A stretch of 64,000 nucleotides of DNA, taken from NCBI GenBank assembly GCA_050273025.1, contig CP158635.1:14384001-14448000 (forward strand), written 5' to 3'. The translations under genes were made by a program, and so were the position numbers. Source of the stretch: Cenococcum geophilum (taxonomy: Eukaryota). This document shows, in pieces, positions 27,993 to 64,000 of this stretch. Numbering within the stretch: position 1 is the first letter of the stretch; every line of letters starts with the position of its first letter. The notes under the pieces were generated by a model, which saw only the letters and a program-made list of their open reading frames with translations, searched no databases and was not told the DNA's origin.

Positions 27993-28140
27993 GTATGTAG
28001 CCACTATGGATGGTTGGAGTATTTACGGAGTGGGATTCAAAGATTGAAGTATTGGTATCAGTATTTCAATGACGTCGGAGTTACCGCATCTAGTAGGTTC
28101 TATTCGCGAGTAGCATCGCCGTATCTATCAATCCCATTTA

Positions 28141-28918
28141 ACGTGGTACTCGTGGCACCCACTAGTAAGCAGCGCTTACTAGTGGTCCCGGGCTCAATGC
28201 AACAACCGAGCTCAATGCAACTTTTATATTTGTATGGCGTCTCATACAAAATCAACCTTTTTCCAAGTTGAATAACTCAACAACAACGCTATAATAAATT
28301 ATTAAATATATATACTTCTTTTTTTTATACCTAAATAAGTATAAAGAAACTTAATTTTAATATTAATTTTCTATTTTATAGAAGTTTTAGTATTTACTGG
28401 CCTTAAATAAAATATAATAATAAAAAGTATAGAAATACAATAAATACAATAAATATCAGCTTTAAATAAGTTATATTATTGATTTTTAAAGGATTATATA
28501 TAAGCCTTTAAATTCTTATATAATTTCTATGTAGTATTGTTAAGTTATTCAACTTGGAAAAAGGTCGATTTTGTATGAGACGCCATACAAATATAAAAGT
28601 TGCATTGAGCTCGGTTGTTGCATTGAGCCCGGGACCACTAGTAAGCGCTGCTTACTAGTGGGTGCCACGAGTACACGGGGTTTTGCACGAGCCCTGAGTT
28701 TTGCACGAGCTAGTAGGCCGCTTCCTAATGTAGATGGAACACCAAAATACTGCCAAAATGCCTTAGAAGTGTTGGGTCTTGCACGACCCAACAGCGTGCA
28801 CGACCCAACGGCTACTTCTAAGGCATTTTGGCAGTATTTTGGTGTTCCATCTACATTAGGAAGCGGCCTACTAGCTCGTGCAAAACTCAGGGCTCGTGCA
28901 AAACCCCGTGTACCACGT
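28141..28918. mobile_element. Fot1/pogo-type hairpin MITE, about 250 bp once the nested insert is removed
   Basis: TA-flanked ends ACGTGGTA(C)ACGGGGTTTTGCACGAGC...GCTCGTGCAAAACCCCGTGTACCACGT; about 100-bp near-perfect arms with internal direct repeats GTTTTGCACGAGC x2; left TIR split by the element at 28149-28671. Confidence 0.8.
28149..28671. mobile_element. Tc1/mariner-class MITE, about 137-bp TIRs, TA target duplication
   Basis: CTCGTGGCACCCACTAGTAAGC... at 28149 and its reverse complement ending at 28671; TA at 28147-48 and 28672-73; very AT-rich spacer. Confidence 0.85.
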
Positions 28919-28925
28919 TACATCC

Positions 28926-31900: not shown

Positions 31901-32101
31901 CATTCAAAAGTAATGCCTTCGTCTGCGTACCATATATTTAAGGTGTCTCCTATTTATCCAAAAGCTTATTCATCGTCGCTCTAGAAAAAGATCACGTCTT
32001 AGTGGAATTGTATTTTAATTAAACAGTAGGTCTTGCGGATGGTAGGTAGGACAGTAGCTTTGTCCTTATTCTTGGCGGTAAATACAAAATTGAATTTAGA
32101 A
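28926..32101 (-). mobile_element. RIP-mutated Ty1/Copia retrotransposon, 3' half (integrase, RT, RNase H, PPT, 3' LTR 28926-29160)
   Basis: Minus-strand motifs EQNSKAERSGRTL (integrase), KVIRTRDVTFDE, FYIDDIAV (RT), SDAAFAD...STTEVELL (RNase H), HIDV, MPANGLTK. G-rich PPT abuts a TG...CA LTR; many RIP-type stop codons. Confidence 0.92.
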
Positions 32102-32103
32102 TA

Positions 32104-32726
32104 ACGTCTTAGCCACCTAGACGAGACAGCCACCCACCTAAGACAGTGCACGGACCTCCTACGAAAATCAAAATCAATTTGATATTAAAATCGACCCTAA
32201 AATCAACCCCAAAGTCAACCTAAATCTACCCTATTATATAAATACACTATAATCCATTAGTAGTTCCTTCCAACCCTTCTTTACAAAGGTAATAACCCCC
32301 TATAATGCAGCCTTCCTTTCCTTTACCCTCTTCTCTTCCTGTTCCTTTTGAAGCTTTTCGTCGTTCTTCTTCTATGCCTCTGCTACTAATAAAACTCGTG
32401 CCTTCCTATAGGCAGCTCTTGTCTTACTAATACGCTCCTTCTTCTGTCTTTTAAGAAGCTCCTAATTTGTTCGCTTGAGGATTATATTATTAGCTACCGT
32501 ACTTAATATAAACTGCCGAATATTATGTATAACTTGAGAACGTAGGGGTGATGTACCTTGTAAGAGCTGCCCAAATATTTTAGTAAGTCTCTCCTCTATG
32601 GAAAGAGACACGGGTATATTAAATTTGTGGCTATTTTTGTCTGTAAAGCTTATACAGGAAGGAGTTGTTAGCTAAATCTTTTTTAAAACAACCGAAGGGT
32701 TAAACGGTAGAAGGCCAGTTGCCCGC
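32104..32726 (-). mobile_element. 3' end of a Fot1/pogo DNA transposon inserted into the Copia integrase region
   Basis: TA followed by an ACGT-starting TIR with internal direct repeats at 32104; minus-strand RATGLLPFNPSVVLKKI motif typical of Fot1 transposases downstream of the DDE domain. Confidence 0.75.
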
Positions 32727-34510
32727 TATCACGGCACTGACCTAACGCATACTGTTTCATACTGTCTCATACTATTTCCTATTATTGGCTGGCCCACCAC
32801 TAGTGACTTGGCGGCCGGCCCTACTATTTATATACAATACCCCCTTTCCACCTTCTTCCCCTCTTTATACCACAACGTAGTTATTCAGTCTACTTTATTG
32901 CAGCACTGTAACAGTTTATGGTATCTCCAATTTGCGCCCCGTCGCGATTACTAATTCCCTATACCCCAGCCAATTGACCTCCGCCCTAGAGCAATCGCGA
33001 CCTACGCGCGCCTCTGCTAAAACCGACACATCCCCAGCACAATCCTAAAACAATCCTTAGTTTTTACCTAGCGCCTAGATGGGCGATATTAATAACGCCA
33101 AAATGGCCGAAACCTAGAACCCCCGCGACGTTTTTATAGACCTCTTTATAAAGATATACCCTAATATCGCATAGACAATCCACCGCTCCCCACTGTACCC
33201 TAAGACCTTTAAGCCTAGTAAAGCTTACCTTACCCTTATTAACTATACTAACGAGTTCCTTAATAATATTAAAGTAGGACTATAGTATATATATAATATA
33301 AATACCGCTAATAAGAAAGCTAATAAAAACCTTAGCGCCCTTATCACTTCCTAAATAGGAACTATTAACTCCTAAGTAGAGACTATCGCCGTTCTAAAAT
33401 AATTAACCCCTATAATAATAGTAGTAACCTAGCAAAAAAAACGGAGATCTAAAGACCCGCCAATATTTAGCGGAAAAGGCACCCCGCTAGAATAATAAGC
33501 TAATTTTAAGACCTGGTATATTAAGATTAAGGGAGTTTTTAACTAGGACTAGGACTACTTTAATACAGTTTAGTCCTAAATCCTTTACATCTTAGATATG
33601 CTAGAGGATAAAGCCTATAAGTTTATTAAGTAGGGCCTAGAGCTTATATATAAGAACCCAAACAATATATTTACGTAGAAATGGCCCGTTAAGGAAGATA
33701 TACTTAAAGACCTTACCGCCTACTATAAGGTCCTTAATATAACCTAGGTCGCAAAGAATAAACTTAACTATTTCCCCTAGGGCGAGCGTAATTACTAGTC
33801 CTAAAAGGGAGAGCTTAATAAGCTAATAGTCCGCGCTAAGAAGATAAACAAATAGAAGGTAGACCTACTTTAAAAGTTTATCTCTCTAAAGATAGAAGAG
33901 CTAGTACTTAGACTTGCCTATAAAATTAACAACAGCGACTATATAAGTTAGAGTAAGTAGATAAATATGTTTACTAAAAACCTTATAAACTATATACACT
34001 AAGCCAACCTTAAGAAGAATACTAACCACCACCTACCTGCCTAAGCCCCTACCCCTATATTAACCCCGACCCTAATAGTAACTAGAGAACCTATAGACCT
34101 TAATAAAATCTTAGATATAGAGCGTAAGTACCGCGTTAATAATAGATTATACTTTACCTGTAGCCTACCTAGCCACTAGAAGGACGCCTATAACCCTACT
34201 AAGACAGTAAACCTAGTTCTAATGCTACCCTATTAAATAACGCAAACTAATAACCGCAGACGCGGCGACCATAGAGTCTATTATAGACGCGGCGACCGCA
34301 AAGCCTATTATAGCCGTAGTAGATAACCCCCCCCCTTTAACCCTACGGCTTAGTTACTCTAAACTATACCCTATATAGGAGCCTAACCCGTTAATAACGC
34401 CTAGTATTAGTAACTCCGCGCTAGCGAATACGAACACGGCTATATTATTAGCGAGGTATTTTCTTCCTATACCCTAACCGAGACTAAAACCCATACCGCC
34501 AGCTAGACGG
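32727..34510 (+). mobile_element. RIP-mutated Ty3/Gypsy 5' fragment (LTR 32727-32913 plus gag)
   Basis: LTR TATCAC...GTAACA (RIP-altered TGTCAC/GTGACA); gag motifs KDPPIFSGK and EPIDLN...NNRLYFTCSLPSH (degenerate PMDLD plus CCHC knuckle). Truncated near 34510. Confidence 0.8.
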
Positions 34511-34872
34511 ACACTGGAAGAAGTTTTTAACACCTTGAAATGCATTCTCCACATCGCTTTCATAAGACAGTTTACGTTTTGAATACCCGGCAACAACTTA
34601 TGAAATAAGTTTTAAAATTGATTTTCCTTCTCATCTGAAGTCTGTACTCATCAAGACCCCGTTCACAGTTGATAATTTTGTGAATGTTAAGATTTCCACC
34701 TTTGTAAGTTTTCCGTGAGGCATTGAAAATATACTCAATCTTTCGCAAAAGTCAAAAGCCTCTTTGACAAAAGGCGCTCTTTATAAGTCCACGAACGTGT
34801 CCCAGACACATGAATTTACCGAATTCCGAAACTCCGGCTGAGAATTTCCGATTACTAGTCCGTGGACATCAA

Positions 34873-35177
34873 CAGGGTTGTTAATCAATCACCCTGGTTT
34901 CAATATTGAATTGAATTGATTGATAATATTGAAACTTTTAATATTATATAGAAAAATGCTGAACATAACATATAATAACGCTCTGAACCTTATTTTTCTT
35001 AGTCCTCCTCCGTCAACACCATGCCAAGACTCGCGACAATTTCTGACTACTACGTAGTTGCAATTAGTTGTAATCGTTTCAATATTGAATCAATTAACTG
35101 AGCCTTCCGCTTACAAAGCTTTCAATTCAATCGATTTGAGGCCTCAATTAAATTGAATTGACTGATTTACAAGCCTG
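34873..35177. mobile_element. hAT-type MITE inside the HET pseudogene
   Basis: 19-bp imperfect TIRs (CAGGGTTGTTAATCAATCA / TGACTGATTTACAAGCCTG); 8-bp target duplication GACATCAA / GACATCGA; subterminal CAATATTGAA/AATTGA repeats. Confidence 0.75.
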
Positions 35178-35523
35178 GACATCGAAAAGAAGCAATGGTA
35201 ACTGCAATCTGTCCGGCGCAGTGCCAAACAGTCCAACACTATCATTACTTCCAGCCGCAGCAACGATACAAGACGGCACCACGGTATATTGACTCCATCG
35301 TTTTGAATTTTCTCATGCTTGTTTTGAGTGTCCTGCATTATACAAAGCGAATTCACCGACAGCCAGCGTAGGCCCAACTCCTTACAAACGCAAATTACAT
35401 CCGCAATTGTCCTTGGGGAGACTGTCCAAATTGATACCCCCGTCTTGTCGCAGCCTGGGTTCATTGAAGCTCGTTAATTGCTCCGACATGGCACCTTTGG
35501 AACTCGGGACTTCTGTGGAAATC

Positions 35524-35757
35524 TGTAACCGACTACTGGTGCTCTGATGAGCCTACCCTTGACTCACTCAACGACTCGCTCACCTTGACTCGTTCACCGA
35601 CTCGAGCCACCGACTCGACCACTGACTCGGTCGATGACTCGGTCAATCCCTTTCTTATCTCATTATCTATACCTTCCTCATGTATATATATAGACCCTTT
35701 AGACCTCCATTTACAATCAAGTCGCTCGTTCAATTCCCACACACTGCAAAGCTTACA
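35524..35757 (+). mobile_element. Solo LTR of a Copia family related to the element at 28926
   Basis: TGTAACCGACTAC...CTGCAAAGCTTACA with perfect 5-bp target duplication AAATC; both ends match the reverse complement of LTR 28926-29160. Confidence 0.9.
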
Positions 35758-37400
35758 AAATCTCCTTTTGCCTCCAACCATAACCGAGACTAGCATATCT
35801 GCAATTTTTTGGAGCCTGGGTAATGCGGAATCGCTGTGCATCTACAACATCAGATGATAAATACAGTCCTTGATACACGTCTTTCGGGACAAGCTCCTGT
35901 GAATGATGTTGCTGCTCAGCGTAACTTATGGCTTCTTCGCAAGTATCTAGCTAAGAGCTGTGCTTCTAGAACTTAGTATATCGTGTCACCCTTGCCGAGT
36001 ATTCCGAGATTATGCAGCTTGGTTCATCTGTTTGAACGGATTTCTTGCTATTTTTTACGGGGACAGGAGAGGGACTACGCGTTCCGGTGGTCTCTTTAAA
36101 AGTTTGAAGTTGGTAGAGGCATTGGATCCTGTCATCCTTTGGCTCTTGATAGACTCGTATTGTGGGTTTAGGTCGGAGGGGAGATTGGAATTGCCAGAGC
36201 CGAGACTCTTTATCTGCGGGCTGCTCTTGTCGTCGAAGCTGGGTATTGGAAGGAGCTCACTTTTCACTTTGAAAAATTGTGGGATCAAGTAGCTTAGTGA
36301 CCCCGGACAAGCCAACTCCGGTCTTACATATTCCAAACAAGCTCTCCGCCGTCCGAAGTTGGGGCCAGCCAATGTAACAGCCGCATCCAAAACACTTATG
36401 CTACGTTCGCTACTTGTAACAGTGGCCAACTGGATTTGGTCGGAGTTTGGGGTAACTTCGATTTCATGAGCAAACACTCAGTAGAGTCTTGGAAATTATC
36501 GTCCGACTGATAAACATATAAGGTGTGCGAAACAAGTCGGCAGAAAACGCAGGTTTTTCTTTCCTTGATCTTGCCAAGGTAGCCTAATGAAATACCATTT
36601 GTAAGTGGGCACTTGTTTCCATTTGCTTGAACAAAGATTCCACGTAGAAGGTTTTTGAAGAGGAAACGAAAGTCTAACTGTTGGGAATTGAGGTAAAGGC
36701 ACTCATTATCTAGACTGCGCTTTTCGACTTCAGCCTGGCTTCTGGGCCATGAATAGATCTCTGGCGTAGAACTCTGGGAGGAAGCCAGAAACGACCAGTC
36801 AGCACCTCCACGACTGATATGGATTGGTATGGCTATTTGGGAGGGTTTCAATGGAGGCCCGAGGTAGTCCAAAAGAGAAGTGGTGTTGAAGAGAGACTTT
36901 CATGACCGGGCTGGGCTGGGTTGGGCCGCGTTTGATGTGAAGGCTAGTTCGTGGGCTAATTTGAAGACACCGTTCACGCCAATAGGAGCCATCTCGCGTT
37001 TGTGTGCAACACAGCATTTCACTGCCGTGAACTTAGTACGAAGTGTGAATGCGCTATCGAACGCATCAGAAATTGTTCGTTCCTACTTCATATAATAGTA
37101 TACTTATCAAGTTAGAACATACGGTTCTCATCTTGCCCAAGCTAGCGGCTTTGAAAATCAATTACTTCCTTCCTAAATCCTCATTACAGACCTTCTCGGT
37201 TCCTATATCTTCACGTCCGTCAAATTGTAATGCGATATAACCTCACGCACCGCAATTACGAAGGAGACACCTGAAATCCAATTTGTGATGACGCCATAAT
37301 GCAATGCGGTTTTCAACGCAGTCCATCTCCCAAACCATTATCGTCTCCATGAACACAACCCCTCCAAGTATCAGCAGCCATATCAGTCTATTACCGCAGT

Positions 37401-48809: not shown

Positions 48810-48960
48810 CGGACAGGATCCGGGCAGCAACTCTTGGCAGTAACTTTACTGCCCGAATCTTTTGATCAGCGGCGGCCCAGCAGGCGGTAAGGGTAGCCAA
48901 GGCACTACTCGAGCACCTATTTTACTAGTAAAAGCCATACAAATGCAATGTTTACTAATA

Positions 48961-49297
48961 CAGTAAAATCTCCTTAATACGATATAGGGTATATAACGAT
49001 AACCTCTACATTACGATCTACACCCCTTAATCAAGCCTTTTTTGGTGTAATATTACGATAATCTGACTTTTGGCAATATCGTTAAGCACCTACCACCAAT
49101 ATCGGTATAACCAGTAGAGAATTTGTATGGAGAGGACCCTATTTAGCCCGCGAGGTAGACATCCTAAGCCTTTTTAGGTATTAAGCTCCTCTTTTTCCTA
49201 CTTATTCACCCAACACGTGACTCTTAATATAACAATACCATTGGTATTACGATACGCTCGGCCGAACAAACGGTATCGTACTAAAGAGATTTTACTG
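48961..49297. mobile_element. pogo/Tigger-like MITE (337 bp)
   Basis: TA-CAGTAAAATCTCCTTAATACGATA...TATCGTACTAAAGAGATTTTACTG-TA; a related copy lies at 57416-57761. Confidence 0.85.
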
Positions 49298-49479
49298 TAC
49301 TCCGTTTTAGCCGCCCTAAGGGCGCTATACCGGGTCTTCTATTTTATAGAGGTAGATCCTAGGTAACTACCTATCTTAACTACAGAAGTGATTCCGTAAG
49401 GCCCTTATCCGCCTATCTACTATATGCTATAAGCATATAGTGCCCAAAAGAGAAGCAAATACCTAAAATTAAAATTATA

Positions 49480-50450
49480 AGAATATATATTTTATATTTT
49501 ATATTTTATATCTATTGTATTATACTACGTATAATACTACACATATAGCCTTAGGCTATAGCGCTATAGTTCTATATATATAAATTCTTTCTAAGCAGCT
49601 TAATATATACTAGTAGCTATATTCTAGTAGTTTATAAACTCTTAAACTAGGAGTTTATAGTACCTTAGTAAACTACTAAGTTACTATAACTACTAGAGAA
49701 TAAGAAAACGGTAGCAAAGGTGATAAGAAATCTTAATACCTATCCCTATCCTTTTGCAATTTATTTCTATCCTTTTACTCTTTAATATCTTTTTAAGAGC
49801 CTAGGAGGAGTTGCCTCTCAAAATCCTATTAATTTTATTCTTCTATAGAACCTTCTTCGCTAGTACTATCTACTAGTTTGGCTGCTTTAAGAGTCTTATA
49901 GTCTTTACTATTAATAAAGTGTTTTTCCTTACAATTAATATAAAGAGGGGTAGTATGCTTATAAGGCTTGCCTATTATTATATAGGTAGAATAGGCGTGG
50001 TCTTAAGATAGATATATAGCCGCATAATATCTATAGGCCCTAGTAAAGCATCTATCTCCTATATAGCCAAATTTTTGGCAGCTAGTGCACTGCGTAGTAG
50101 GAGAGACTTTAAGGTATTTTACTACCTTAGTAGCTGTACCTGCAATTAAAATATCTTTTTACTTAAGGATTTCCTGTCTTTTTTCTTTATTCTTTATAGT
50201 AAAAACTATAAAGCCAAATCTAGTTTATAGATTATGCCTTTTTACACTAGATAGGATCTATTTAGGTAGTCTTTGTATCCTTATAGGATTAAAGGTCTTA
50301 ATTTCTTCTTTTAAAAGCTTAGAGCCTCCTTCTCCTAGGAAAAGTAAGGTAGGAAACCTATAGGCTATAATTTAAACCTATAGTTCTAGTTTTTATTCCC
50401 TTTAAAAGGTAAAGTAGTTATACTAGATTTCTGTAAGAGGCTAGCCTAAC
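49480..50450 (-). mobile_element. RIP-mutated LINE (Tad1-like) ORF1/gag remnant
   Basis: Minus strand EEIKTFNP...IAGTATKVVKYLKVSPTTQCTSCQKFGY...INCKEKH, i.e. tandem degenerate CCHC knuckles with C/H to Y RIP changes; AT-rich tail near 49490. Boundaries approximate. Confidence 0.7.
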
Positions 50451-51333
50451 TAGAACGTATAATTATCTAATTAACAGTGTCACCGGTAAGTAGAAGGTAA
50501 GTTAAAGGTAAAATAAGTTTTTATATATTAAAGGACAAATACTTTTAACCACTTCTATTTAGAGACTAATTGCTAGTTCTTCTCTAGAGGGGAACTAGCT
50601 TCCTATATATTTCTTCCAAGATGCTAATAAAACCTTTCGCCCCTAACCTATTTAACTATATCTTCTAGAATATAGATGGGATATAAATAAAACCTCCTAC
50701 CGTCTTATTGGATATGTACCTCTTAGGGGATTCTATTACAATTACCTCCCCTTTTAGGGTCTTAGTCCTTTAAGACTTCGCCTCTACTAAGCTTTTATAG
50801 AGTTCCGGCTAAAACTACTAGGGAAACCCTTAGTAGAAAGGTACTCTATAATGCGACTTATCGCTAGCTCTTTACTAGCGCGGAACTTTACTTTATCTTT
50901 TATTCCTCTGCTCTTCTCCTACCCTAGCTCCTTATAGTGTTTTCGTAATAGGATTTTAATAATAGTAATAAAAATTTAGTGGGATTTACCTCTCTAATTT
51001 TAGGAATTTGTTATAAATGGATCTGGAGGTTATCCGGTATAACACGTTAACTAACTACTATTCCTATTTACCTAAATAGGCCTTAATAATAACGTCTTTT
51101 ATTTTAATTTCTTTCTATTTATAAGTTATCGTCTCTCCCTCGTCCTTCTATTAATAACACTATTCGTCTTATTCTTAAATAGGCTGTTTTCATTATATCT
51201 CGCCTTTTAGCTTCTATATCTCTAGCCGTACTTCCATTACTACCTTATTATCTTTTCTTAACGCGTTTATAAGCAATAGGATCCCTACCTTATCTCTTAT
51301 AATAATGCTAACTTCTTAGAGTATTCTCTTATA

Positions 51334-52151
51334 ATAGCTTGTAGTCCTTCTACGCGTCCCTAGACCGGTAGTAGTGTCGTTAATCTTCTAGTGACGCCCT
51401 AGACAGCGTCTGTTGCTCCTACGGCAGTTTCCCTAAAATGCTGTTATCGCTGCGTTTATACTCTTACGTAGGATCCTTCCTACGTCTATAAGATGCCTCG
51501 CTCCGGCAAAAATAAATCTAAGTGCTCTTATTATCGCAGTAGGAGAAAGACCTGCGTCCTAGTATTTCCTATTCCGTCCTATTCTAGATTTCGCTAATTA
51601 TACTAGATCCCTACTATCTATACGTATAAGACTTATAGGCTCTAACACGCTATCTAAGATTTCCGCTAATATCCTAATAGTAACAGGCGGGGACAGAAGG
51701 TGTCTTCCCTTGCTTATAAACTCTTTAATTCTATAAGGGTTTCTACTGCTATAGAGATATAACGTTCTTAGATATATAGTGTCTAGGAGCGTATATGCGA
51801 ACAGCTCGTCCTTATTAATAATAACATTTATACTCTTACGCGGGCTACTCTAGCTAGGTAAGTTTCTCTAGTAACTTACTTAGGAACTATACTAACTCCT
51901 TTAGCCAACATCTCTCTAATCCCTACTTAGATGCCGATTTAAAACCTAGGGATACTAAGGATAGCAACAAAGGTTAAGATAAACGTTCTCCTCACTAGTC
52001 TCCCGCCTATGCTAGTCCTTCTAGTACCTATCGTTCTAAGAAGAATATTAGTGGAAGTGCTAATACTTCTAGGGATAAAGAAGCTGATAATACCGTTAAT
52101 AATAACGTTAAGATAGAAGAAGAGGCTCCTATTGCTACTGTTAGTATTTAA
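51334..52151 (+). pseudogene. Antisense, two-intron accessory gene inside the Gypsy element; variant Zn2Cys6-like protein of about 241 aa, RIP-inactivated
   Basis: Exons 51334-51561, 51607-51857 and 51905-52151. Intron 2 is GTAAGT...ACTAAC...TAG; intron 1 is GTATTT...GCTAAT...TAG. Exon 1 reads CYRCVYTLT*DPSYVYKMPRSGKNKSKCSYYRSRRKTCVL. All internal stops are TAA/TAG; the start is ATA, presumed RIP of ATG. Confidence 0.65.
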
Positions 52152-55100
52152 GTTATTACTTAGCTTTTTCCTTCTTCTTATAGAATAGCTTTATATAGTG
52201 CCTCTTAGGTGCCTCTAGAATGCCCTATTATTAGGAATTAACTTTATACTTTAGGGATGCCTTTATTTTAGGCTTTAGTGACAATCTATATAAACGCAGT
52301 GCATTACTATAATCCCTATATATAATAAACGGGTAGTATTCCTATAGGTGCCTTATAATTCCTTAAAATTTCTAATTCTTTATAGGCTATCCTTTTACTC
52401 CTCTTCGTACTATTAATTTTATTACGTATCTCTAGTGCCAGACTAAATACTCTCCTTTTATCCCTAGGGGGTCCTTTTAAATCCTTAAGGCCTTTTCTTA
52501 TATTACTACTGCTTATTCTTAAATAGCGTCTTCTTTAGACAGTATCCCTAGTGGTTCTTCTATAGATCCTATAGGCTTCCCCTTATAGGATTCTAGGATC
52601 CCTGTTATAATAGTAAAATATTTCCGTTCTTAATGCCTATACTTAATCCTATAGTTTTAATTTATAGGGTTTTCCCTATTGCTTTACCTATAGCATATCT
52701 AGAACCATTTCTAAATCTTTACCTTTAGTTCTTAGGAAGGTTTTAATTACGGTATTATATCCTAGCTAAAGGTACTCCTTAGGTTCCTAACTATTATACG
52801 CCTAAAAGTATCCTTCCTAATAAACTAAAAATTTGCGCTTCTTCTAGCGCCATCTTTAGTCTAAAATATCTTCTATATTCCATTCCAGTTCCCTATTAAT
52901 TTCGCTAGGTAGGGGCGGTTCCGCACTATCTCTTCTTTAGTATAGCTCTAGTAAGGAAACATAAAATATAGGATATATTAGATAAGATTTTAGTTATTCC
53001 AATTTATAGGCTTAGTTTCCTTTAGTTTTCTTAACTATCTTAAAGGGTCCAAGCTACTGGTAATCTAGCTTCTTCTTAATGCGTTTTATTCGGATATTTT
53101 TTATAAATAGTAAGACTTTATCTCCTATCTTAAATTCTTTTAGTATATATTTTTCGTTATAGTACCTTTTTTGTACGGCTTAGGCGTCTAGTAAGTGCTT
53201 TTCAAGTTCCTCTCTGCAAATTCTTATTTGCTTAATTCTTTTGGACGCCGCCAGTGCCTCTCTTTTAGGAATAATATCCTTAACGTTTTAGGGGTTATTT
53301 ACTTTTACCCCAAACAATGCTTTATAAGGGGTCATTTTTATACTACTATAGATGCTTATGTTATATACATGCTGCGCTAAAGCTAACTATAATATCTAAT
53401 TATCCTGTTAATAATTAATATAGTAGCGGAGGTAGTGTTCCAACAACGTATTTAGACGCTTTATTTACCCGTCTATTTACGGGTAGAAGGTAGTGCTTAT
53501 CCTTTACTATATTTTTAATAAGAGATAGAATAAAGACCAAAATGCACTATTAAATACGGTACCTCTATTTGATATAATTCCCCTTAGCGTACTAAATAAG
53601 AGCCACCGTTCTAAAAACAGGTCTGCTAGTTCTGCTGCCGTAATCGTTATTATAACAGCAAAGTATCCTAAAAACTTTATATACCTGTTAACGATTACTA
53701 GGATAGCATTAGCAACCTCTCCAGTTCTTATCTTAGTAGGGGGTAAGCCTATAATAAAAACCATTATTAATTCTAATATAGGTCCCTATAAAATAGGAAG
53801 CACTAATAACTCGCTATATAGGCGATGCCTGGATATCTGTATTCTTTAGTATATATTATACCTTAATATATAGTCCTTAACCTCTTTAAATATTCCGTTC
53901 TAAAAGTATTTCCTTTAAACGGCCTTAAGGGTTCTATTGGCACCGTAGTAACCCCTAAGAGGGTTATTATAGAAGACCTTTAGAATTTTATTTTAAATCG
54001 CTTAGTCCTTTAGGACATATATAGTACCCTTAAAGCGTAATAGACCCTTTTAGTCTTGCTACTATAGCTTCTTAGTAACTCCGGCTAAGTTAGTCTCTAC
54101 TATATCTTTCTACCTCTCTCTAGAGGCGAAGGCGTCCCTTTATTAAGCTTAAAGAAGAAGATCTGGAAAGGTTTTATATAGGTCACTCGCTTCTATTTCG
54201 CCTACCGCTATTATAGACTTAAGGCGTAGCATAAGACGTTTTAAACTATTAGTGCTAGTAGATTCTCCTACCGTTATATAGTGTGCCATACTGCGGATAG
54301 GCATCTCGCCTATCCCCCTTAGATTTAAAAACTTATAGCTAATACGCCGTCGAGTCGAAGGTACCGCGACACCTCTAGCACATCCCGTAGAATTCTCGCT
54401 AATTCTAGGGTACGCTAATTTTATAATATCTACTTAGTCTATAACCTAGTCTATAACTATATCCTACGGCTCTATAATTATATTGCTTTATAGCTATATT
54501 ACTAGAACCTCTACCTTATTACAAAATTCTATAGTTTTAGGGAAAGAGTCTTCTTTCTTCCTAAGTAAATTTTGTAATGTGGGGATTATTTCCCCTATAC
54601 TATCCTAGATTCTCCCTATCTTATAATCCGGACGTCTTAATAACCTATTAGCAGGATTTGTCTTTCCTAGGCGGTACATAATTTTAAAGTTATACTATAA
54701 TAGTGCCTCTACCTATCTCGCTTGTTAACCGCTTAATACCTTTATAGTTATAAAGTATTCTAGGTTATTATAGTCTATAAGGACTTTAATAGGATAATTA
54801 CTTCCTATATAATAATATCGCCAGTACTTTATTGCTGCAATTATTACGAGTAGCTTTTAGTCGTGCGTTATATAACGCTGCTTTATAGGGGTTATTTTCC
54901 TTAACTAAAACGCTATAGGATGCTATTCTCCGTCTTTTAATTAAGATATAATTACCCTTAGGGTAAAGCCGGATATATCCGTTTTAAGGTATATACATAG
55001 CTCTTAGCAAAAGTGTATTAAAATAGGCGCCGACGTAAATAAATCCTTTAACCGGTCTATTGCCTGCTTAGTAGCTTCCCTAAATATAAAGGGTCCTAAC

Positions 55101-57361
55101 TTCTTGCCATTTTTAGATCCTTTTAGTAGATTAGTAATTAGGAGTATTACTTATAAATAGTAAACAATGAACCTTTGGTAGAAGTTTACCGTGCCTAAGA
55201 AAACCTATACTTCTCTAAACGTTATAGGGTATAGCTATTCCCTAATAGCGTCTACCCGGCTTTTCTCCATTGATATTTTATTAACACTAACGATAAAGCC
55301 TAGAAAATTAATGCTAGTAATATAAAAGGAGTATTTTTTTAGATTTATATAGAGCTTATATTCCCACAGTCTTTCTAGTATTATTTGCACGTAGTGTGTA
55401 TATACTTCGTAGTTATTAAAGTAGACTATAATGTTATTAAGGTAGACTATATATATAGTATCTAATAGGCCTAATAATGCCTTATTAATATAGGCCTAAA
55501 ATATCGCCAATGCGTTGGTAAGCCTAAATGGCATCACTAGGTACTTAAAGTGGCCGTACTATATTTAAAACGCCGTTTTCTACTTATTACCGGCTTTAAT
55601 CCGGATTTAATAGTATATATCTTTTAGATCCAGTTTTATAAATATCTTTACGCCTAATAGCCTATTAATAAGCTCCCCTATTAAGGGTAGCGGGTAGTAA
55701 TTCTTTATAGTAATCCTATTAAGCGCCTAATAGTTAATATAGAGGTAAAGGGTTCTGTCCTTCTTTGGTATAAATATAATTGGTACCCCTACTAGGCTTA
55801 TAAAGAGCCGAATCTATTCTTTCTAAAGATTGTCTACTATATACTAACGTAATACGGCCAGTTTATTTTCTAATAAGCTATATAGTGGTTTAAAAGGAGG
55901 TTACTTATCCCCTATATCTATCTCTGTTAGGTGAAAACCTGAGTATATAGTTATATAGCTGCGAGGCACAGGCGACTCGCATGCGACTCGCCTGTGAGGC
56001 ACGTGCAGAGCACGTGCCCCTAGGGAAACCCCTTACCTCGCACCTTAGACTCCTCCTTCTCCCTTAAGGATTCGTCTACTTATATAATATACCCTATTGT
56101 TCTATTATTGGACTCCCTATCTACATCCTTACCTTACATTTAAATCCTTACCAATCCCTTTGGGAGGATAGCCGGTTTAATTTTCTACGATCCACAATGC
56201 CTCCGAAGACAAGATCGACGCCTGCACTTAATGGCGACACGCTAGCGATATGACTGCAGAACGCCTTAGGATCTAGTGCTAGAAGCACATTAGTAGAATC
56301 TACGTGACCTTCCGAATCTTAAGACGACTAGATATTTACGAACGCTAGAGACCAGTTTGACTTATATACCTAGGCTTAATAGGAGCTTAGTAAGGTTACT
56401 AGCGTTCTACCAAATACTGCTGACCTAAAGGAGCTAGATAAGCTGGCTAAGAAAATAGCTAACTTACGGAGCATTATCGATTTGATCTTTCGTCGCCCCT
56501 CTAGTAAAGAGTATAAGTTACGCAGTGAACGCATACGACGAACAAATCTCAACGCCCTGGTTAAGAAGTCACCGCCTAATATTAGTGGTACTACTTAACA
56601 GAAGTTTAACTAATGGATTGCCGTAATTAAGAATTAATTTAAGATTAATAACGCTGACTATAACTGCGAGCGACGTACGCGCTAGGCTATTAAAGGTCTT
56701 ATAAAAGAGAAGACAGTTACCTAACTAGTGCATTACCGCCTAGGCGCCAAAAATAAGGGTCCTCTACTATAGGATAAACTTAAGACTATGGTCTAAGACT
56801 AGATTAAGAACCCTACAGTAAGACGCTTTAAAAATGCTACTGCGTACTATATAACTGTAATAAAGGAGAACCAAAAGTTTAACACCTTCTTAGCCCGTAT
56901 ACGTAGCTTAGAGGACCTCTTCTTATACACCCCTTTTGTCAACCCTAATTAGCAGGTAGACTTTTAGTTCTTACGTCTCCCAACCTACCTATAGGTAGAG
57001 CTCTTCCGCCAGAACTTCGCTATACGGGTAAAAACCACTAAGGACCTTTTCGCAGAAATCCGCTATATAGAGTAATTACTTAACACCACAAAGCTTGCGG
57101 AAGACCGCGCAGCTAGCAATAGTAGATCCTCGCGCCTAAAGCGCGGTCGTAGCATAGGCTCTATAGGGTTAGGTTTAGAGAATAGAACCCTAGGAAGGCG
57201 ACGCTTTCCCAACTAAGCTCTAGGGGAGACTACTTAACAGCCAAATAGCTCAGAGGACCCCCTAGACGCTAGTAATATACCTACGCATTACAAGAAGAAC
57301 GTAGGTAGTAATTGCAAAGAACACTAGCGGCAAACCGCTATAAATAATACCTAACTATTAG

Positions 57362-59375
57362 GTAGCAGGTCCGTCTATAACTGGGGTCCTTTAACTAGGG
57401 TCCTTTAACCCGCTACAGTTAAAACTCTTTATAACGATGCGGGTCGTACGGCCGACCGTATCGTAATACCAATGGTATTGTTATACATAGAGTCACGTGT
57501 TAGGTTAATAAGCAGGAAAAGGAGGCTAATGCGTGGCTAGGCATCCTAAAAGGGCGTAGGGCGTCTACTTCACGAGCTAAGTAGGACCCCTCCTATACAA
57601 AATCTCTACTGGTTATAACGATTTTGGTAGAGAAAACTTAACGATATTATGAATAGTTAGTATATCGTAATATCACACCAAAAATATTTTGATTAAGGGG
57701 TGTAGATCGTAATATAGAGTATATCGTTGTAATCAAATATCGTACTAAAGAGTTTCGACTGTAGTAACCTACTAGTAGTAACCTACACTAACGACTTATA
57801 CCGGATAGGTCCATCTATAACCGGGGTCCTTTAACTAGGGTCCTTTAACCCACTAGTAACCTACTAATAGTAACCTATACCGACGACGTATATTGGTAGA
57901 TAGGTCCGTCTATAACTAGGGTCCTTTAACTAGGGTTTACGACCCGCTAGTAACCTACTAGTAGTGACCTACACTAATAACCTACGTATAAGCCTAAAGA
58001 TTTAGATACTATATATCCCTAAACGTATACCTTATATAGGCGCATCGTGACCTAACGCTAGATGGGGAGAAAGGGAATGCATTATGGTATATATTGCGAT
58101 GGATACGCCCTAGGGTAAAGTCCGCCTACGTACTTAATACAATAATAGGTGCCAAATTAACCCTTAATACTATATAAAAGTTGCGGGTTATGGACCTTAT
58201 GGGCAGTCCTAGTGCTACTACACCAATAACCTGGCGCCGGCGGACCAGAGTGTCCTACTATTTTTACTAAGACTTCGACCAACCTATAGCGCTAGACCCT
58301 TAGCCCAGGCAACGGTCCCCTATAATGACCCTATAAGTGACCTATATATCGTATATTACCTCGCTAGCACTGGCTTTACGCAGAGCCTCGTGCTATAGTA
58401 AGTAGTAGTAGTAGCTACCTTAGCCGAAACGGCCTTTACAGAACACCCCTAAGTTACTAATCTATCTATAGAGTATAAGGGATGCCTTTACATGCTCTAT
58501 ACGCGACTACCTAGGGGCGAGTTCCTACTAGCAACACTTAAGGACTCCTAAGGCATAATAAGGTCTGGCCTTACTAAGGACCTCCATAAATACCTAGGTA
58601 CTATAATACCTGCTAACGCTTAAATCGCACTACTATACACCTTATAGTGAGCTATAGCCCTTAAGGCCCCCATATAAGCCTAGCGGTATTACTTACTTAA
58701 CTCTATTACGGATCTCCCTAAGTCTAAGACACCTCCTTATCCTTATAGACCGTTTTATAAAGCTAGTATACTACCACCTAGCCTTATAGCTAAAGCGTAA
58801 GCGAAAGGCAAGCGCTGCTGCTGCTAAGACATAGCCTATATTAAAGAAAGGTAGAGGATATCCTAAGGGATCAAGGAATAAGCTAACACTTATAGTAAGA
58901 GTTGCGGTATATATACGGGGTAAAGCTTAATTCATTAATATCCTATATAAGCCACATTCTACCGCAACCTAGCGACTCGCAGGCAACTTATAGGTAAGGC
59001 TATAGCGTACTACTAGTAACCCTAAAGCAATTAAAAAGTACTCTCCTAGGCCTAGACCTAATCCGTTACTCTATACTACCTTTATAGACTATTTATATAT
59101 TAGGTAATAGGTCCGTCTATAACCGGGGTCCTTTAACCGGGGTCTATAACCCGCTAGTAACCTACTAGTAGTAACCTATATTAACGACTTATACTAGACA
59201 GGTTTGTTTATAACTAAGGTCCTTTAACTAGAGTCTTTAACCCGTTAGTAACCTACTAGTAGTAACCTATACTAATAACTTATATTATCCTACACCCGTC
59301 CGTAACTAGGGTCCTTTAACTAGGGTCTACGACCTACTAGTGACCTACTAGTAGTAACCTATACAGATAACTTGT
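57362..59375 (+). repeat. Two tandem arrays of a roughly 75-bp unit inside element X (about 57362-57985 and 59105-59375)
   Basis: Recurring GGTCCGTCTATAACYRGGGTCCTTTAACTAGGGTC...GTAACCTACTAGTAGTAACCTA units. Confidence 0.8.
57416..57761. mobile_element. pogo/Tigger-like MITE, second copy, inverted relative to 48961-49297
   Basis: TA-CAGTTAAAACTCTTT...AAAGAGTTTCGACTG-TA. It splits a CCCGCTA|GTAACCTAC repeat unit that is intact in neighbouring copies, which confirms the TA duplication. Confidence 0.85.
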
Positions 59376-60044
59376 ACACTATTCCACGTATATGCTATAT
59401 AGATAACGCGTAAGGCTAAGGCAAAGGTCAGCGGCGGATTTAATAAGCATATAGCCTTACCGTCCTAATCTGGCTGTATATAAGTAACCTATAACCTACC
59501 CGCGAAGTATATACGGCGCTACGCCGGTATAGCGCAAGGCTAAAGTAAGGGTTAACGGCGGGTTTAACGGGTATATAGCCTTACTATTTATAAATCTGGC
59601 TGTATGCAAGTAACCTACAACCTACCCATAAGGTACTAGCGACCTACCTATATAAGCGAGCTTTTAGAATATTTCTTATCTACCAAATTCGGGCAATAGT
59701 ATTAAGCTACTAGCTCTACCTGTTAAATAGACTAATTAGGATTTTCTATACCGGGCATATAAAATTACTATTAGCTTAGTGAAATGTAGGGAAGTCTTAG
59801 TAAGCCAAATCTGACTAATTAAATAACTTTAACCGGCGGTTAAAGTTCCTTAATATCTTCGCGCAAGTATACTACCTATCTCTCTATACGCAAAATTAGG
59901 ACGCTTTTTCCCTTCCAATTTTTTCCTTATTAAGGTTTTTATAGGGTTTTATTAAGGCCTAAGTATATAAAGGATTAGGGACAACCCTTTTTAAAGGGGG
60001 GGGCATTGTTAGGTAAAAACCTAAGTATATAGTTATATAGCTGC

Positions 60045-61904
60045 TGTCACAGAAGTGGGCATGAGCTAGAATACAATGTACTAAACAGGGTAGTAATTAA
60101 AGAAGGCTACGTACGTGTAACTATGCGTAGTTAATACAAAGACATTTGGATAAAGAAGAAGATTCTTTATATGCTAGGTTAGGTATAAATAGGGGTTATA
60201 GGGGAACGTGCGTAGGTGTCTTGGGACGAACATAAGCACGGGTTAAGAACGTCAAAACGCGCAGGGACGTAAGAGCGTGTAAGTCCCGTGACAGTACCCC
60301 CCCCTTACTTCCGAGCTCCTGCGAGGCGTGTTGTGTTATATATACCAGAAAAAAACCCAATATAGGAAAAAAAAAAATTTGTTAGCCTTCTCCGCCCTTC
60401 TATATCCTCCGTTACATAGGCTCCTCTAGTTCGGTCCTTCCATGTTTAATTATTAGGCCACTAACTTGTTAGGCCCAAAGCATAGCCTAGCTTCCGTCGC
60501 CAGCTACACTCCTATCCTCGCCGCTTGGAGACGCATTGCTGAAGCTTGTATAGTCCCTTTCTTGCTTCTAGCAGCTCTATGGCCTTCCCTTCCTATACTC
60601 TAGGTCCCCCTAAAAAATTACCCCAATTTTTGGTCCAAAATGGGCGTTTTAGGCAGTATTTATTGGCCTAAACGGCAGTATAGTACGGTCAGTACGGTGT
60701 TCGTGGTCGTGGTAAGGCATATTCTTGGCAGGTTCTTATCGGTGCGGTGCAGTATTCGTATCGTAGGCAGGTTCTTGTCGGTGGCAGTATGGTGCCAGCG
60801 CAGGTTCCGTAGGCGAATCAGCACGGAGCTTATTGGTTCGTGTAGCAGTACAATGCAAGCGACGGGCGGCTTAAGACAGTCTGGGTATCGGATGCGAATA
60901 GCTTCGGCGGCGGCAGTACGATGCTAGCGACAGGTTCGGGCGGCTTAGGACAATTCGGGTATCAGATGCAGAGAGCTTCGGCGGCAGGTTCGGACGGTAG
61001 CAGTACGGTGCTAGCGACGGGGTTGTCTCGTAGGCATATCGGCACGAGGCTTGTCGGTTCATGCGGCAGTACGATGCAAGCGACGGGTTCGGGGGTCTAG
61101 GGAGCGAGGCTCTACCTAGTCGTGTTCGGCTCGTAGGCGTATCGGCACGAGGCTTGTCGGTTCAGGTAGCAGTACGATGCAAGCGACGTGTTCGGGCAGC
61201 AGTACGATGCAAGCGATAGGGTCGTAGGCGTATCGGCACGACGGGTTATCGGGGTCGTTTCGCAGGCGTATCGGCGCGAGGTCTTGTCGGTACGTAGGGC
61301 AGTGCGTGTAGGTCGGTAGGACAGTAGTAAGATACCAGCTTCCGTGTTCGTGTTCGTGTTCGTGTAGCAGTAGGATGCGAGCCATCAGGTTAAACCGAGG
61401 GGCAGTAACGTGCCTGTTCGTAAGCGGTAGTAGTAGGGTGCAAGCCATCGAGGTCGCAGGCGTATTGGCGCGGTGTCTTGTTATTAGGTCCGTATGCAAA
61501 TCGGCGCGGAGACTTGTCATACTAGTTTAGAACCCCAGTGTCCTAGTCTACCCGTAGCCAGTAGCTCCTGTATCTACCCCGTAGGCGTAGAAAGGCATGC
61601 TTCGCGACTAGTAGCCTATAGGCCCGCTAGGTATAGAAAAGGGATCCAAATATAGTGTTACGGAAGTGGGCATGAGCTGGAATACAATGTACTAAACAGG
61701 GTAGTAATTAAAGAAGGCTACGTACGCGTAACTATGCGTGGTTAATATAAAGACATTTAGATGAAGAAGAAGATTCTTTGTGTGCCAGGTTGGGTATAAA
61801 TAGGGGTTGTAGGGGAACGTGCGTAGGTGTCTCGGGACGAACGTGAGCACGGGTTAAGAACGTCAAAACGCGCAGGGACGTGAGAGCGTGTGAGTCCCGT
61901 GACA
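60045..61904 (-). mobile_element. Small non-autonomous LTR retroelement (TRIM/LARD-like, element Y) inserted in the 3' LTR of element X
   Basis: 249-bp LTRs at 60045-60293 and 61656-61904; perfect target duplication GCTGC; minus-strand PPT at about 60296-60307; 1.36-kb interior of short dispersed repeats with no gag or pol motifs. Confidence 0.88.
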
Positions 61905-64000
61905 GCTGCGAGGCACAGGCGACTCGTATACAACTCGCCTATGAGGCACATGCAGAGCACGTGCCCCTAGGGAAACCCCTTACCTCGCACCTCAGACTCC
62001 TCCTTCTCCCTTAAGGATTCGTCTACTTATATAATATACCCTATTGTTCTATTATTAGACTCCCTATCCACATTCTTACCTTATAATCTCGTACTTAACT
62101 AATATAGGGTTAGGTAAGGTCTGTGTAGCCTCTTTATTAGAAACCTTTTTTAGGTCTATATATTCCTGCGGAATCTTTAGTTCCTTAACTACGTATAGCT
62201 AGATATCCAAAAATAAATACCTTATATCTTTATTCTCGGGGTTAAGAGTAGCATATATAGTATATGCCCACCCTTCTTCTTATATATAGCTTAGGAAAGT
62301 CTCTTAATCCTTAACTATCCCTTCGCACGTTGGTTTGCGTCCTACGGTATCGATAAGGGCCTGGCCAATAAGAGGCGCCCGTTGGGCGCCCGTGTGTACG
62401 ATATTCCTAGGCTTGGCGCCAAGTGTAGGACTCCAACGTGCGAAGGGATAATACGCGATTAAGACTTCTAGTGTTAATACAAGGCTAAAGGCCAATTAAT
62501 ATTTGGGTTAACTTAGCAAAGCTATAGGTATCCTAAAATAAGGTTATACCCCTTAATTTCTGCGGCGTAGAAGCGTATCTCCTATATATCCTATAGACCG
62601 TCGCGGTCCTAGCTAGCAACGGGAAATATTTATTCCCCGTAGCACGGAATCTAATAGCCTCCAATATTTTAAACGGTGCGCACCTATAAGCCGCTAAGGT
62701 CCAAATCTAATTCTTTTACTAGTAATTAAGAAATAAACCCTATACTCGCGCTACTGTCCATAAAGCAATCTCGCGTCACCTATTTATTATTAACTTAAAT
62801 AGAGACAGGAATAACTATGCGGTAGTTTATTCCCTCCTTCTTTAGCTGGCCTAGTATAAGGGAGTAAAGATCTACTAGGCTATCTTTTTTCCTAATTAGG
62901 CCGACTCTTACTTCTTTTACCGGTAGAAGCGGCTTATATAGCCCTTTTTGCCGCAGTTATAATAGGTGCGTGTCTCCCAGTTCCCCTTCTATAGATTAGG
63001 TCTCTGCCTATTATTATTTTAGAGTTAACCAGCGTTGCTCTAGGGCTGCGAGGCCTGCTCACGTTATCCTTCCGCAGAGCGGTTAGGTCGGGATCTGCCC
63101 CTATTATTAAAGCTAGGTCTAGTCCTACGCTCTTTATTATTAGCGTCTCGTTCCTTTTACTTGCCTAAATAGTCTCTTTTAGTATTCTTAATCCAAGTAG
63201 CTTTAGAGATAAGCTTTTCTTAAGAGGTAGGAATTTCGCCCTTTTCTTATATAGCCTGTTAAATCTTAGGTTATAGCTTAGCAAGTAGCTAGTGAAGTCG
63301 TATAGCGTCATCCTATAGGTCTAAGTAGGGTATATTGTCTTTTAGTTCTTCTAAGTAGTTTATAAACTAGACCACAGTCTAACTATCCCACTGTTTAGCG
63401 TTGTGGTATCGCTAGTTATAGTCTATCCCTTAATTAGTAGGGTCTTGGACCTAATTAACCAACTAGGTCCTAAGTTCGCTAAATTTAAGGGGTGTAGTAA
63501 GTTTCTTTTTATAGCGTATCTATAAACTCTTAACGGTACCATATAGAAAGGTAGAAGTAATTAGTGTCTAATTATATTTATTAGAGTAACGTTTCGGATC
63601 CAGCTAAAACTTAGTTTTGTATTAATGGATAAAATAATTACAGTTCCAGAGACTATCACTATAGTACTTATTAGGCTCCTTTATACGGAATTTAGGTTTT
63701 TCTAATATTATAGCGTAGTATGGCGTTACCCCTTTAAGTCCGCTTTGTATTTAGGGTGTCTATACTTCTCCTAACTGTCCTTATAATTATTCTTAGTAGT
63801 CCTAATATACTTATCTTAATTATATCTCCAACTCTTTTGTTTTTTATAGGGTCTCACATAGCGACCACTTTAATAACTCCCTAGCGGTAATCGTTTCTAA
63901 GGGTCTTGTAAGGTTAAACGGACTAGCCGTAGCTTCTTTATAGGAAGAGGGAATACGCTCCTCTAGGGAGACTCTCTAAGCCTCTTACGGTAGGGGCGTT

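Follow-up and report, generated by a model that had tools for sequence, protein, structure and literature searches.

The closest described system among fungal elements is brtn, reportedly an antisense gene of the Boty-like elements of Botrytis, said to have been described by Zhao et al. in 2011 (Virology 417:248). Among retroviruses, HBZ of HTLV-1 is a spliced antisense gene by the 3' long terminal repeat (LTR), with the first exon located upstream of a short intron, and encodes a bZIP protein. The plant LTR elements with antisense open reading frames (aORFs) that are discussed below belong to other, non-chromovirus lineages. Here we analyze a 64,000-nucleotide stretch of the Cenococcum geophilum genome (contig CP158635.1, positions 14,384,001 to 14,448,000 of the forward strand; the whole stretch is henceforth called the window), in which a Ty3/gypsy chromovirus wrecked by repeat-induced point mutation (RIP) contains the remains of a spliced gene between the pol stop and the polypurine tract (PPT), on the strand opposite to gag-pol. 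It is very probable that this is a real, element-borne spliced gene; that the chromovirus family carries it as a third gene is the best explanation overall, in which we have good confidence.

According to passages of the respective sources, the brtn arrangement is found also in Sclerotinia (PMC7264820), a Boty-like element is described as being 'with brtn-106' (PMC4227169), a Monilinia transcript is similar to BRTN (PMC5987419), and the current annotation of B05.10 lacks brtn (PMC8365987). The locus in the window resembles the brtn/Boty system, to the extent that these passages describe the latter, in that a fungal chromodomain gypsy element carries an extra antisense gene between pol and the 3' LTR (PMC7264820, PMC4227169, PMC8365987, PMC5987419). 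This likeness is one of position and orientation, and none of the proteins of 84–300 amino acids (aa) in the collection that was searched matched the product of the intact copy of the gene, which comes from a metagenome locus denoted L001. The sequence-only reading of the window, in which the antisense gene was originally proposed, professed to know of no characterized example; this has to be corrected, given that brtn of the Boty-like elements has been in print since 2011, as far as the passages cited above go. Searching the literature, supplements not covered, for antisense zinc-cluster genes in LTR elements of fungi returned nothing beyond brtn.

In plants, antisense ORFs of unknown function, some of them nuclear, occupy the same place in Grande, RIRE2, Retand and PvRetro13, according to a passage of PMC7264820 that also credits gene23 of Grande with its own promoter. 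The gene described here shares position and orientation with the plant aORFs; according to the same source, most copies of a family contain the aORF, its conservation is similar to that of the other proteins of the element, and it has no relatives in databases (PMC7264820). It differs from them in that their hosts are plants and in the three introns and the module of seven Cys defined here; the comparison is one of layout, not of sequence. Retand is assigned to a non-chromovirus lineage in a passage of PMC11963269. The layout of HBZ, i.e., a spliced antisense gene beside the 3' LTR, with the first exon before a short intron and a transcription-factor-like product, is also that of the present gene, as an analogy only; HBZ encodes a bZIP protein of a human retrovirus, whereas the gene here has neither a bZIP nor any other Pfam match. 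The HTLV antisense promoter is located in the 3' LTR, as stated in part of PMC7264820. Antisense accessory genes of LTR retrotransposons, of the brtn or aORF kind, are already known, and the present one is a well-defined further case.

In the window, the gene consists of the following parts:

51269..51319, plus strand: relic of the intron in the 5' untranslated region (5'UTR), 51 nt (52 nt in L001); donor GTGAGC changed by RIP to ATAAGC, branch GCTAAC and acceptor TAG kept
51334..51561, plus strand: exon 1, 76 codons, Cys-rich basic domain; ATG changed by RIP to ATA, 3 stops, two Cys changed to Tyr
51562..51606, plus strand: intron 1, 45 nt, GTATTT..CGCTAAT..TAG; in-frame stops inside
51607..51857, plus strand: exon 2, 251 nt, basic helical region; 6 stops, the L001 counterpart being open
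51858..51904, plus strand: intron 2, 47 nt, GTAAGT..ACTAAC..TAG; frame-shifting, retention leads to an immediate TGA
51905..52151, plus strand: exon 3, acidic Ser-rich tail with a basic patch; stop TAA at 52149-52151, 2 internal stops

Joined together, the exons yield a plus-strand frame of 726 nt, i.e., 242 codons including the terminal TAA, with 11 internal stops. This is the three-exon frame delineated in the sequence-only reading, and the signals of both of its introns were recovered as described there; removal of intron 1 is required because in-frame stops lie within it. The acceptor that had been noticed before the start (GCTAAC..TTAG, just 5' of 51334) belongs to the 5'UTR intron that is seen in L001. 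The spacing in exon 1, C-x2-C-x11-Y-x11-C-x2-Y-x6-C, with TAT codons for both Tyr, is as originally read, and both TAT codons are TGT, i.e., Cys, in the un-RIPed L001, where the ATA of the window is ATG. The gap of about 2 kb between the chromodomain and the PPT/3' LTR is real as well: because the relic of the pol stop is at 52649-52651 and the PPT at 50745-50755, about 1.9 kb separate pol from the PPT. The window copy is a relic killed by RIP, with ATG turned into ATA, 11 stops, two of the seven domain Cys replaced by Tyr and the donor of the 5'UTR intron lost.

A full HMMER scan with the minus-strand frame of this segment identified 11 short matching ORFs (E values from 1.6e-57 to 6.5e-4) in ENA, JGI and Logan contigs, several of them clearly less affected by RIP. 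One of these ORFs, P0001, led to four metagenome loci, L001–L004, so that five copies could be compared, including the window. A scan of viral contigs with P0002, a sense-frame protein used below, gave no match. L002–L004 are RIPed copies, nearly all of whose differences from L001 are C-to-T or G-to-A changes. L001 (7203 nt) is un-RIPed (GC 0.50, TpA/ApT 0.74), and both gag (387 aa) and pol (1336 aa) are open. The gag protein contains zf-CCHC, and pol contains Asp_protease_2, RVT_1, RT_RNaseH, Integrase_H2C2, rve, SH3_Tf2-1 and Chromo, the latter at residues 1260-1308 of 1336, ending 28 residues before the pol stop. Thus, L001 has the order of protease, reverse transcriptase (RT), RNase H and integrase, the C-terminal chromodomain and the CCHC gag that are characteristic of chromoviruses.

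On the minus strand of L001, the antisense gene starts with ATG at 6564 and comprises 714 nt, or 237 codons, without a single internal stop, in three exons (6564-6349, which is 72 codons, 6303-6053 and 6005-5759). Intron 1 (6348-6304, 45 nt, GTATTT..CGCTAAT..TAG) contains in-frame TAA and TAG and has signals identical to those in the window; intron 2 (6052-6006, 47 nt, GTGAGT..TGCTAAC..TAG), when retained, leads to an immediate TGA; the 5'UTR intron (6630-6579, 52 nt, GTGAGC..GCTGAC..CAG) ends 14 nt upstream of the ATG, and its donor has been lost to RIP in all four RIPed copies. In the alignment, all boundaries of the three exons and two coding-region introns match the window coordinates base for base. 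The Cys domain of L001, KCCRRCVHALTQDPSHVCEMPRSGENKSKCSHCRSRRKTC, has the pattern C-x2-C-x11-C-x11-C-x2-C-x6-C and one extra Cys (seven in total). All five copies have coding lengths of 714 or 726 nt, always a multiple of three. L001 lacks 12 in-frame nucleotides of exon 1 that are present in the window, L003 and L004. Intron 2 has 47 nt in 5 of the 5 copies, and single-base changes of length (52/51 and 45/44) are confined to introns and the upstream region. The region of exon 3 in L001 shows a strong 3-base periodicity (GC 0.77/0.53/0.36).

The antisense segment is present in all five copies and collinear with pol and the PPT in each of them, and the layout, with the gene on the opposite strand and flanked by the pol end and the PPT/3' LTR, is the same in the window and L001. 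Furthermore, all 30 bins of the region 50300-53300 are covered by contig pieces (8530 and 8569, respectively) from two DNA runs of organisms A and B, the differences among the pieces being almost all transitions; because this multi-copy coverage spans the whole of 50300-53300, the antisense segment is as repeated as pol. The depth of contigs is two- to three-fold lower over 50906-51511. These findings bear out what the sequence-only reading expected of a gene that belongs to the element: an un-RIPed copy restores the open frame (237 codons in L001, with ATG and TGT for both inferred Cys), the segment occurs in other members of the family (five of five copies, and at multi-copy depth in the DNA contigs of two organisms), and it is no separate insertion, being collinear with pol and the PPT throughout.

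Which of the strands codes was assessed by comparing the L001 DNA with two sense-frame proteins, P0002 and P0003, from un-RIPed lineages that are about 25% different in the sense frame. For each amino acid difference, the single base change explaining it was assigned to a sense codon position, and the distinct sites were then summed. Over the 72 codons of exon 1, 17 residues differ in P0002, with changes at sense positions 1:2:3 in the ratio 11:2:0 (2 multi-step, 2 ambiguous), and 15 differ in P0003, with 9:2:0 (again 2 multi-step and 2 ambiguous). Sense position 1 is position 3 of the antisense codon, and all position-1 changes are synonymous in the antisense frame. For the 22 covered codons of exon 2, there are 4, 1 and 1 distinct sites at sense positions 1, 2 and 3; the corresponding numbers for intron 1 and the region upstream of the ATG are 2 sites at position 1 vs. 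5 and 1 at positions 2 and 3. Altogether, 18 of the 22 distinct sites in exons are at the antisense third position (18 vs. 4), compared to 2 of the 8 outside of exons (2 vs. 6; Fisher p = 0.007); for exon 1 alone, the count is 14/16 (binomial p = 0.002). All seven domain Cys are kept across the lineages, four of them with a TGT/TGC difference. Because the changes gather on the antisense third codon position and the Cys are kept, the antisense frame is subject to purifying selection, such that, between diverged lineages, the antisense protein is conserved while the sense-frame 'protein' drifts freely.

Another line of evidence comes from the form of P0003. Its alignment with L001 contains one gap, of 15 residues, which corresponds to exactly 15 sense codons over L001 6304-6348, i.e., to intron 1. 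The tail of P0003, ENTRRVARR, matches 8 of the 9 residues of ENTRRVTRR, which is formed only when L001 6579-6630 is cut, across the junction; the frame at this 5'UTR junction is accounted for by one extra base in the 14-nt leader. The unspliced sequence is retained in P0002, P0004 and P0011. Because the element copies itself via the sense RNA, in which these segments are not introns, P0003 would have to stem from spliced antisense RNA, be it as a transcript contig or as a retrocopy of such RNA. Thus, the proposal that the element encodes an antisense, spliced protein gene travelling with the family is borne out by the intact L001, the mode of selection, the intron-less P0003 and the presence of the segment in five of five copies.

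A contig of 283 nt from run X20 (guessed to be RNA), with a depth of 102.8, covers only 51062-51284, on the minus strand and upstream of the gene. On either side of this stretch, the contig continues into GC-rich sequence that does not resemble the window; it may be chimeric or represent a fragment embedded in another place.

Taken by itself, the window gives weak evidence for the antisense gene; on that basis, a frameshifted ORF on the sense strand seemed no less probable. The spliced frame has 12 stops in 242 codons, compared to the background of 21.6 +/- 5.8, and is similar in this respect to the true, dead pol frame (12.9 stops per 241 codons); the choice of introns in the proposed frame was free, so that the stop count is partly selected. 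The observation that all stops are TAA or TAG had been taken as a trace of RIP. The count is right (6 TAA and 6 TAG among the 12); it carries no information, because TGA is almost missing from every frame of the RIPed stretch (32 and 23 on the two strands vs. 442-516 for TAA and for TAG). When the 11.5-kb RIPed stretch is simulated 200 times with a second-order Markov model, 18% of the simulations contain one or more strict GTAAGT..RCTAAC..YAG units. Two minus-strand frames mirror the antisense exon frames in exact codon register and are less interrupted by stops, namely 51849-51217, with 5 stops in 211 codons, and 52190-51942, with none in 83. No Pfam match was found on the plus strand, either in a six-frame scan of the window at E <= 1 or with the window exons at E <= 10. 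The antisense frames received -9 to -21 bits per 80 codons from a codon model trained on the RIPed pol; this model was discarded as a test, because it reads mainly strand composition. The decisive support for the antisense gene comes from outside of the window.

The L001 product has 237 aa and an isoelectric point (pI) of 8.6. Its N-terminus consists of 30 residues rich in Ala, Pro and Thr and is followed by the Cys domain, in which 10 of the 42 residues are Lys or Arg. The exon 2 region is very basic (Lys and Arg 16/84, pI 11.8) and is modeled by AlphaFold2 with a mean confidence (predicted local distance difference test, pLDDT) of 91.2 as two helices, 3-21 and 26-82 (19 and 57 residues). A Foldseek search with these helices against PDB retrieved generic long helices only, none at E <= 0.001. 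A coiled coil was considered for the long helix and rejected, the best heptad register with 56% hydrophobic a/d positions being too weak. The tail encoded by exon 3 is acidic (Asp and Glu 21/81) and contains the patch RRSKK at residue 198.

The Gal4 cluster has the spacing C-x2-C-x6-C-x5-12-C-x2-C-x6-8-C. The product resembles Gal4-type Zn2Cys6 proteins in having six Cys in the arrangement C-x2-C...C...C-x2-C-x6-C, a basic stretch, subsequent helices and an acidic tail; it differs from them in the first loop of 11 residues rather than 6, in the seventh Cys and in the lack of a PF00172 match. The assignment to a Zn2Cys6-like family in the sequence-only reading is not upheld, given that neither the intact nor the window exon matches PF00172 at E <= 10 and that the spacing of this family is not that of L001. 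Fungal transposons carry DUF3716 proteins as accessory proteins of unknown function, for instance REP9-1/REP9-2 on a class II element of Zymoseptoria tritici, according to a passage of PMC8232023. The parallel is that of a fungal mobile element with an accessory protein, and one nearby Atlas cluster has DUF3716 in 28% of its members. The present product, however, has no match to PF12511 (DUF3716) at E <= 10, the respective Atlas scores (0.78-0.82) are in the range of noise, and REP9 belongs to class II.

Based on this layout, i.e., a short N-terminus, a basic module of seven Cys, a very basic region of two helices and an acidic tail with RRSKK, the likeliest reading is that the product would be a nuclear zinc-binding regulator, expressed from a promoter next to the 3' LTR and acting on the expression or chromatin of the element itself. 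That it is a nucleic-acid-binding regulator is our tentative assignment, for which we would claim slightly less than even chances; a role as activator of its own LTR is doubtful. The antisense introns would survive retrotransposition given that the sense genomic RNA does not treat them as introns, so that the gene could ride along with every new copy. By extension, we speculate, well aware that this is rather unlikely to hold in full, that fungal chromoviruses encode an antisense transcription regulator of their own, which would be spliced, zinc-binding, dimerized via helices and equipped with an acidic tail, and which would activate the LTR or counter heterochromatin or RIP-linked silencing.

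Several points weigh against a gene with such a product. There is a single intact copy, L001, from a metagenome. The codon changes of P0002 and P0003 were inferred by parsimony from the proteins rather than from their own DNA; changes that are silent in the sense frame, i.e., at the antisense first position, are invisible to the selection test; and 6 multi-step or ambiguous differences each for P0002 and P0003 were excluded from the counts. P0003 could come from RNA or from DNA. Exon 3 and intron 2 are less firmly supported than the other parts: their support consists of splice signals, the base periodicity and a frame that is open in a single intact copy, to which the constant 47 nt can be added for intron 2. 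In the RNA run X21, of which about 12% was read, 39 reads fall on the 3-kb stretch, mostly on the LTR side, with none in 50704-52016 and no joint at either intron; the RIPed copies of the window organism look silent, and this silence carries no information on intact copies elsewhere.

The same holds for the protein. The Cys exon is not folded with confidence by AlphaFold2 (pLDDT 60.4, from a single sequence); no exon has a Pfam match at E <= 10, including the intact exon 1 of L001 and the 153-aa ORF; and a sequence search of PDB yielded no match. No relative of the product was found in the protein collection by word-index searches with the window plus frame (among proteins of 106-338 aa), L001 exon 1 (84-268 aa) and L001 exon 1-intron-exon 2 with X (94-300 aa), ranges just outside of which the unspliced 83-aa L001 ORF falls. 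The Atlas scores of 0.78-0.84 lie in the range reached by shuffled proteins and provide leads only. Zinc binding, DNA binding, nuclear location and the effect on the element are all conjectures based on the layout, and the roles in LTR transactivation, anti-silencing or targeting that the sequence-only reading proposed are likewise conjectural.

Among the alternative explanations, the one that retains a sizeable, if minor, share of the probability accepts the gene and assigns a different function to the protein, namely that of a zinc-binding adaptor or an RNA-binding factor acting on the element RNA, the integrase/chromodomain, or host silencing. The protein does not match DNA-binding families, its Cys spacing departs from that of Gal4, the Cys domain has no confident fold, and the basic helices suit RNA as well as DNA. 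Conversely, the order of the parts (Cys module, basic helices, acidic tail with a basic patch) is the usual one for fungal activators, a resemblance and nothing beyond that.

It is quite unlikely that the gene is a passenger, i.e., a host gene captured once and carried without use to the element. The absence of identified relatives leaves its origin open, and gene capture by retroelements is known, as noted in a passage of PMC7264820. Copies, however, decay neutrally after insertion, yet there is purifying selection between lineages; together with the retention of three introns and their signals and the presence of the segment in five of five copies, all this points to selection on the active line of the element. 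Nor was a host paralogue found in the searches of the protein collection, within limited lengths of 84-338 aa.

It is very unlikely that the antisense transcript as such is what matters, by giving rise to double-stranded RNA or through transcriptional interference, with the open frame being incidental. Antisense non-coding transcripts of retrotransposons are known (PMC7264820, in part), but an RNA-only role does not predict changes at third positions, kept Cys codons and indels in multiples of three, and the gene does not overlap pol.

Slimmer still in prospect is the possibility, which we consider extremely remote, that the real gene lies on the sense strand and the antisense frame is its codon-aligned shadow. 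It draws on the openness of the sense frames: in the window, the minus frames are the most open ones (5 stops in 211 codons and none in 83); L001 has sense ORFs of 195 codons (5720-6307) and 179 codons (6043-6582) on the same DNA, which are the ones that gene callers annotate (P0001/P0012 and others); 11 database ORFs match the sense frame; and the minus strand receives the higher score from the pol-trained codon model. However, the openness follows from codon use, given that the antisense gene of L001 does not use TTA, CTA and TCA at all (0/237 codons vs. 45/1336 in pol), so that the mirror frames on the sense strand run for 179-195 codons without a stop, and what the pol-trained model mostly captures is strand composition. 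Moreover, 17 and 15 of 72 residues change, at the first codon position of the putative sense gene, the opposite of what a constrained frame shows; a position that is Trp in one lineage is a stop in another; two ORFs in different frames would be needed; and there is no Pfam match. The avoidance of TTA, CTA and TCA in the antisense gene, for its part, may be due to chance or selected. Finally, a chance pattern in AT-rich DNA mutated by RIP, for which the window alone would speak with its 11 internal stops, the trivial TAA/TAG bias and an intron-like motif found in 18% of simulations, has a negligible probability, given that the same boundaries give an intact gene in L001, with evidence of selection and an intron-less form.

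The antisense gene of the window is thus read as part of a chromovirus copy, the remaining features of which are listed below:

50432..50740, minus strand: 3' LTR, about 309 nt, RIP-mutated; TG start at 50740 right after the PPT
50745..50755, minus strand: PPT AAAAGGGGAGG, read directly
50756..51268, plus strand: spacer preceding the antisense gene, candidate location of its promoter and of its first (5'UTR) exon, from the alignment to L001
52152..52648, no strand assigned: spacer from the stop of the antisense gene to the pol stop, from L001 5759 and 5258-5260 mapped onto the window
52649..55924, minus strand: 3' relic of pol with RT, RNase H, integrase, SH3 and chromodomain, from Pfam on the X-read frame and the L001 alignment
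55925..62085, no strand assigned: foreign insertion of about 6.1 kb, no part of the gypsy element, from the break in the L001 alignment and internal repeats
62086..64000, minus strand: 5' portion of this gypsy copy, from gag to protease, extending past the window end, from the L001 alignment

Bases 49000-64000 are heavily RIP-mutated (TpA/ApT 1.3-2.1, (CpA+TpG)/(ApC+GpT) 0.39-0.89, GC 0.33-0.51). When stops are read as X, Pfam detects RVT_1, two RNase H models, Integrase_H2C2 and SH3_Tf2-1 in a single minus-strand frame, and the element is a RIP-wrecked Ty3/gypsy chromovirus on the minus strand. In the alignment to the intact copy, the chromodomain is at 52736-52882; the antisense gene and pol are convergent and do not overlap. 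The PPT of the window has its counterpart, GAAGGGGAGG, at the corresponding place of L001. The end of the LTR (L001 45-125) aligns to 50512-50432, and contigs of other copies in the DNA runs often end at 50431-50434, matching the LTR edge. The promoter role of 50756-51268 is that of a candidate. Within this region, a segment of 74 nt (approximately 50818-50891) is present in the window, L002 and L003 and absent from L001, and the contigs of both DNA runs skip from 50817 to 50892; this indel polymorphism falls in the candidate promoter region of the antisense gene. In L003, about 280 nt of pol (L001 2869-3148) are missing, at L003 2925-2929.

The gypsy copy is split in two by about 6.1 kb of foreign DNA. 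On one side, L001 206-1756 aligns to window 64000-62450 (83% identity), and L001 1766-1989 to 62309-62086; on the other, L001 1985-7149 is placed at 55924-50677, with the part 1985-7008 aligned to 55924-50892 at 81%. The insertion cuts the gypsy copy at L001 1985-1989, an overlap of 5 nt that may be a target-site duplication. It contains tandem units of about 92 nt at 57322-59374, as well as LTR-like direct repeats (60045-60294/61656-61905 at 92.8% and 55957-56136/61904-62083 at 95%), the order of which is at odds with a simple LTR pair. Also within the insertion, at 60797-61236, there are GC-rich direct repeats of 41-76 nt (GC 0.48-0.54) that have suffered far less RIP than the sequence around them. 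Two segments, 48956-49299, just beyond the gypsy 3' LTR, and 57414-57766, in the nested insertion, match each other in inverted orientation over about 350 nt (77-78% identity). A second RIPed block, 28000-36000, contains a minus-strand Ty1/copia relic (RVT_2 2.6e-22, SH3_retrovirus 8.7e-18) and, in another minus frame, a match to the HET domain that is weak (1.8e-4) and does not quite reach the Pfam cut-off.

The usual picture of an LTR retrotransposon is that of a gag-pol machine. An additional, third gene that is under selection and has its own promoter and introns would therefore mean that the element controls part of its own biology. In fungi, one such case, brtn, is in print, with unknown function as far as the passages cited above describe it. 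To this, the present analysis adds an exact structure with three introns, a selection test at the level of the protein, evidence of a spliced form, and a layout suggestive of a nuclear regulator. Because gene callers take the wrong strand, annotating shadow ORFs of 149-195 codons, and because RIP hides the gene in most genomes, such genes would be systematically missed. If our conjecture of an element-encoded transcription regulator were true, this regulator would be to fungal elements what HBZ or Tas are to retroviruses, and it would belong to a class that is widespread but has gone unrecognized. If the product acts on the LTR or on silencing, it would offer a handle on how such elements escape fungal genome defence; the main interest of the finding is that the function of these antisense genes becomes testable.

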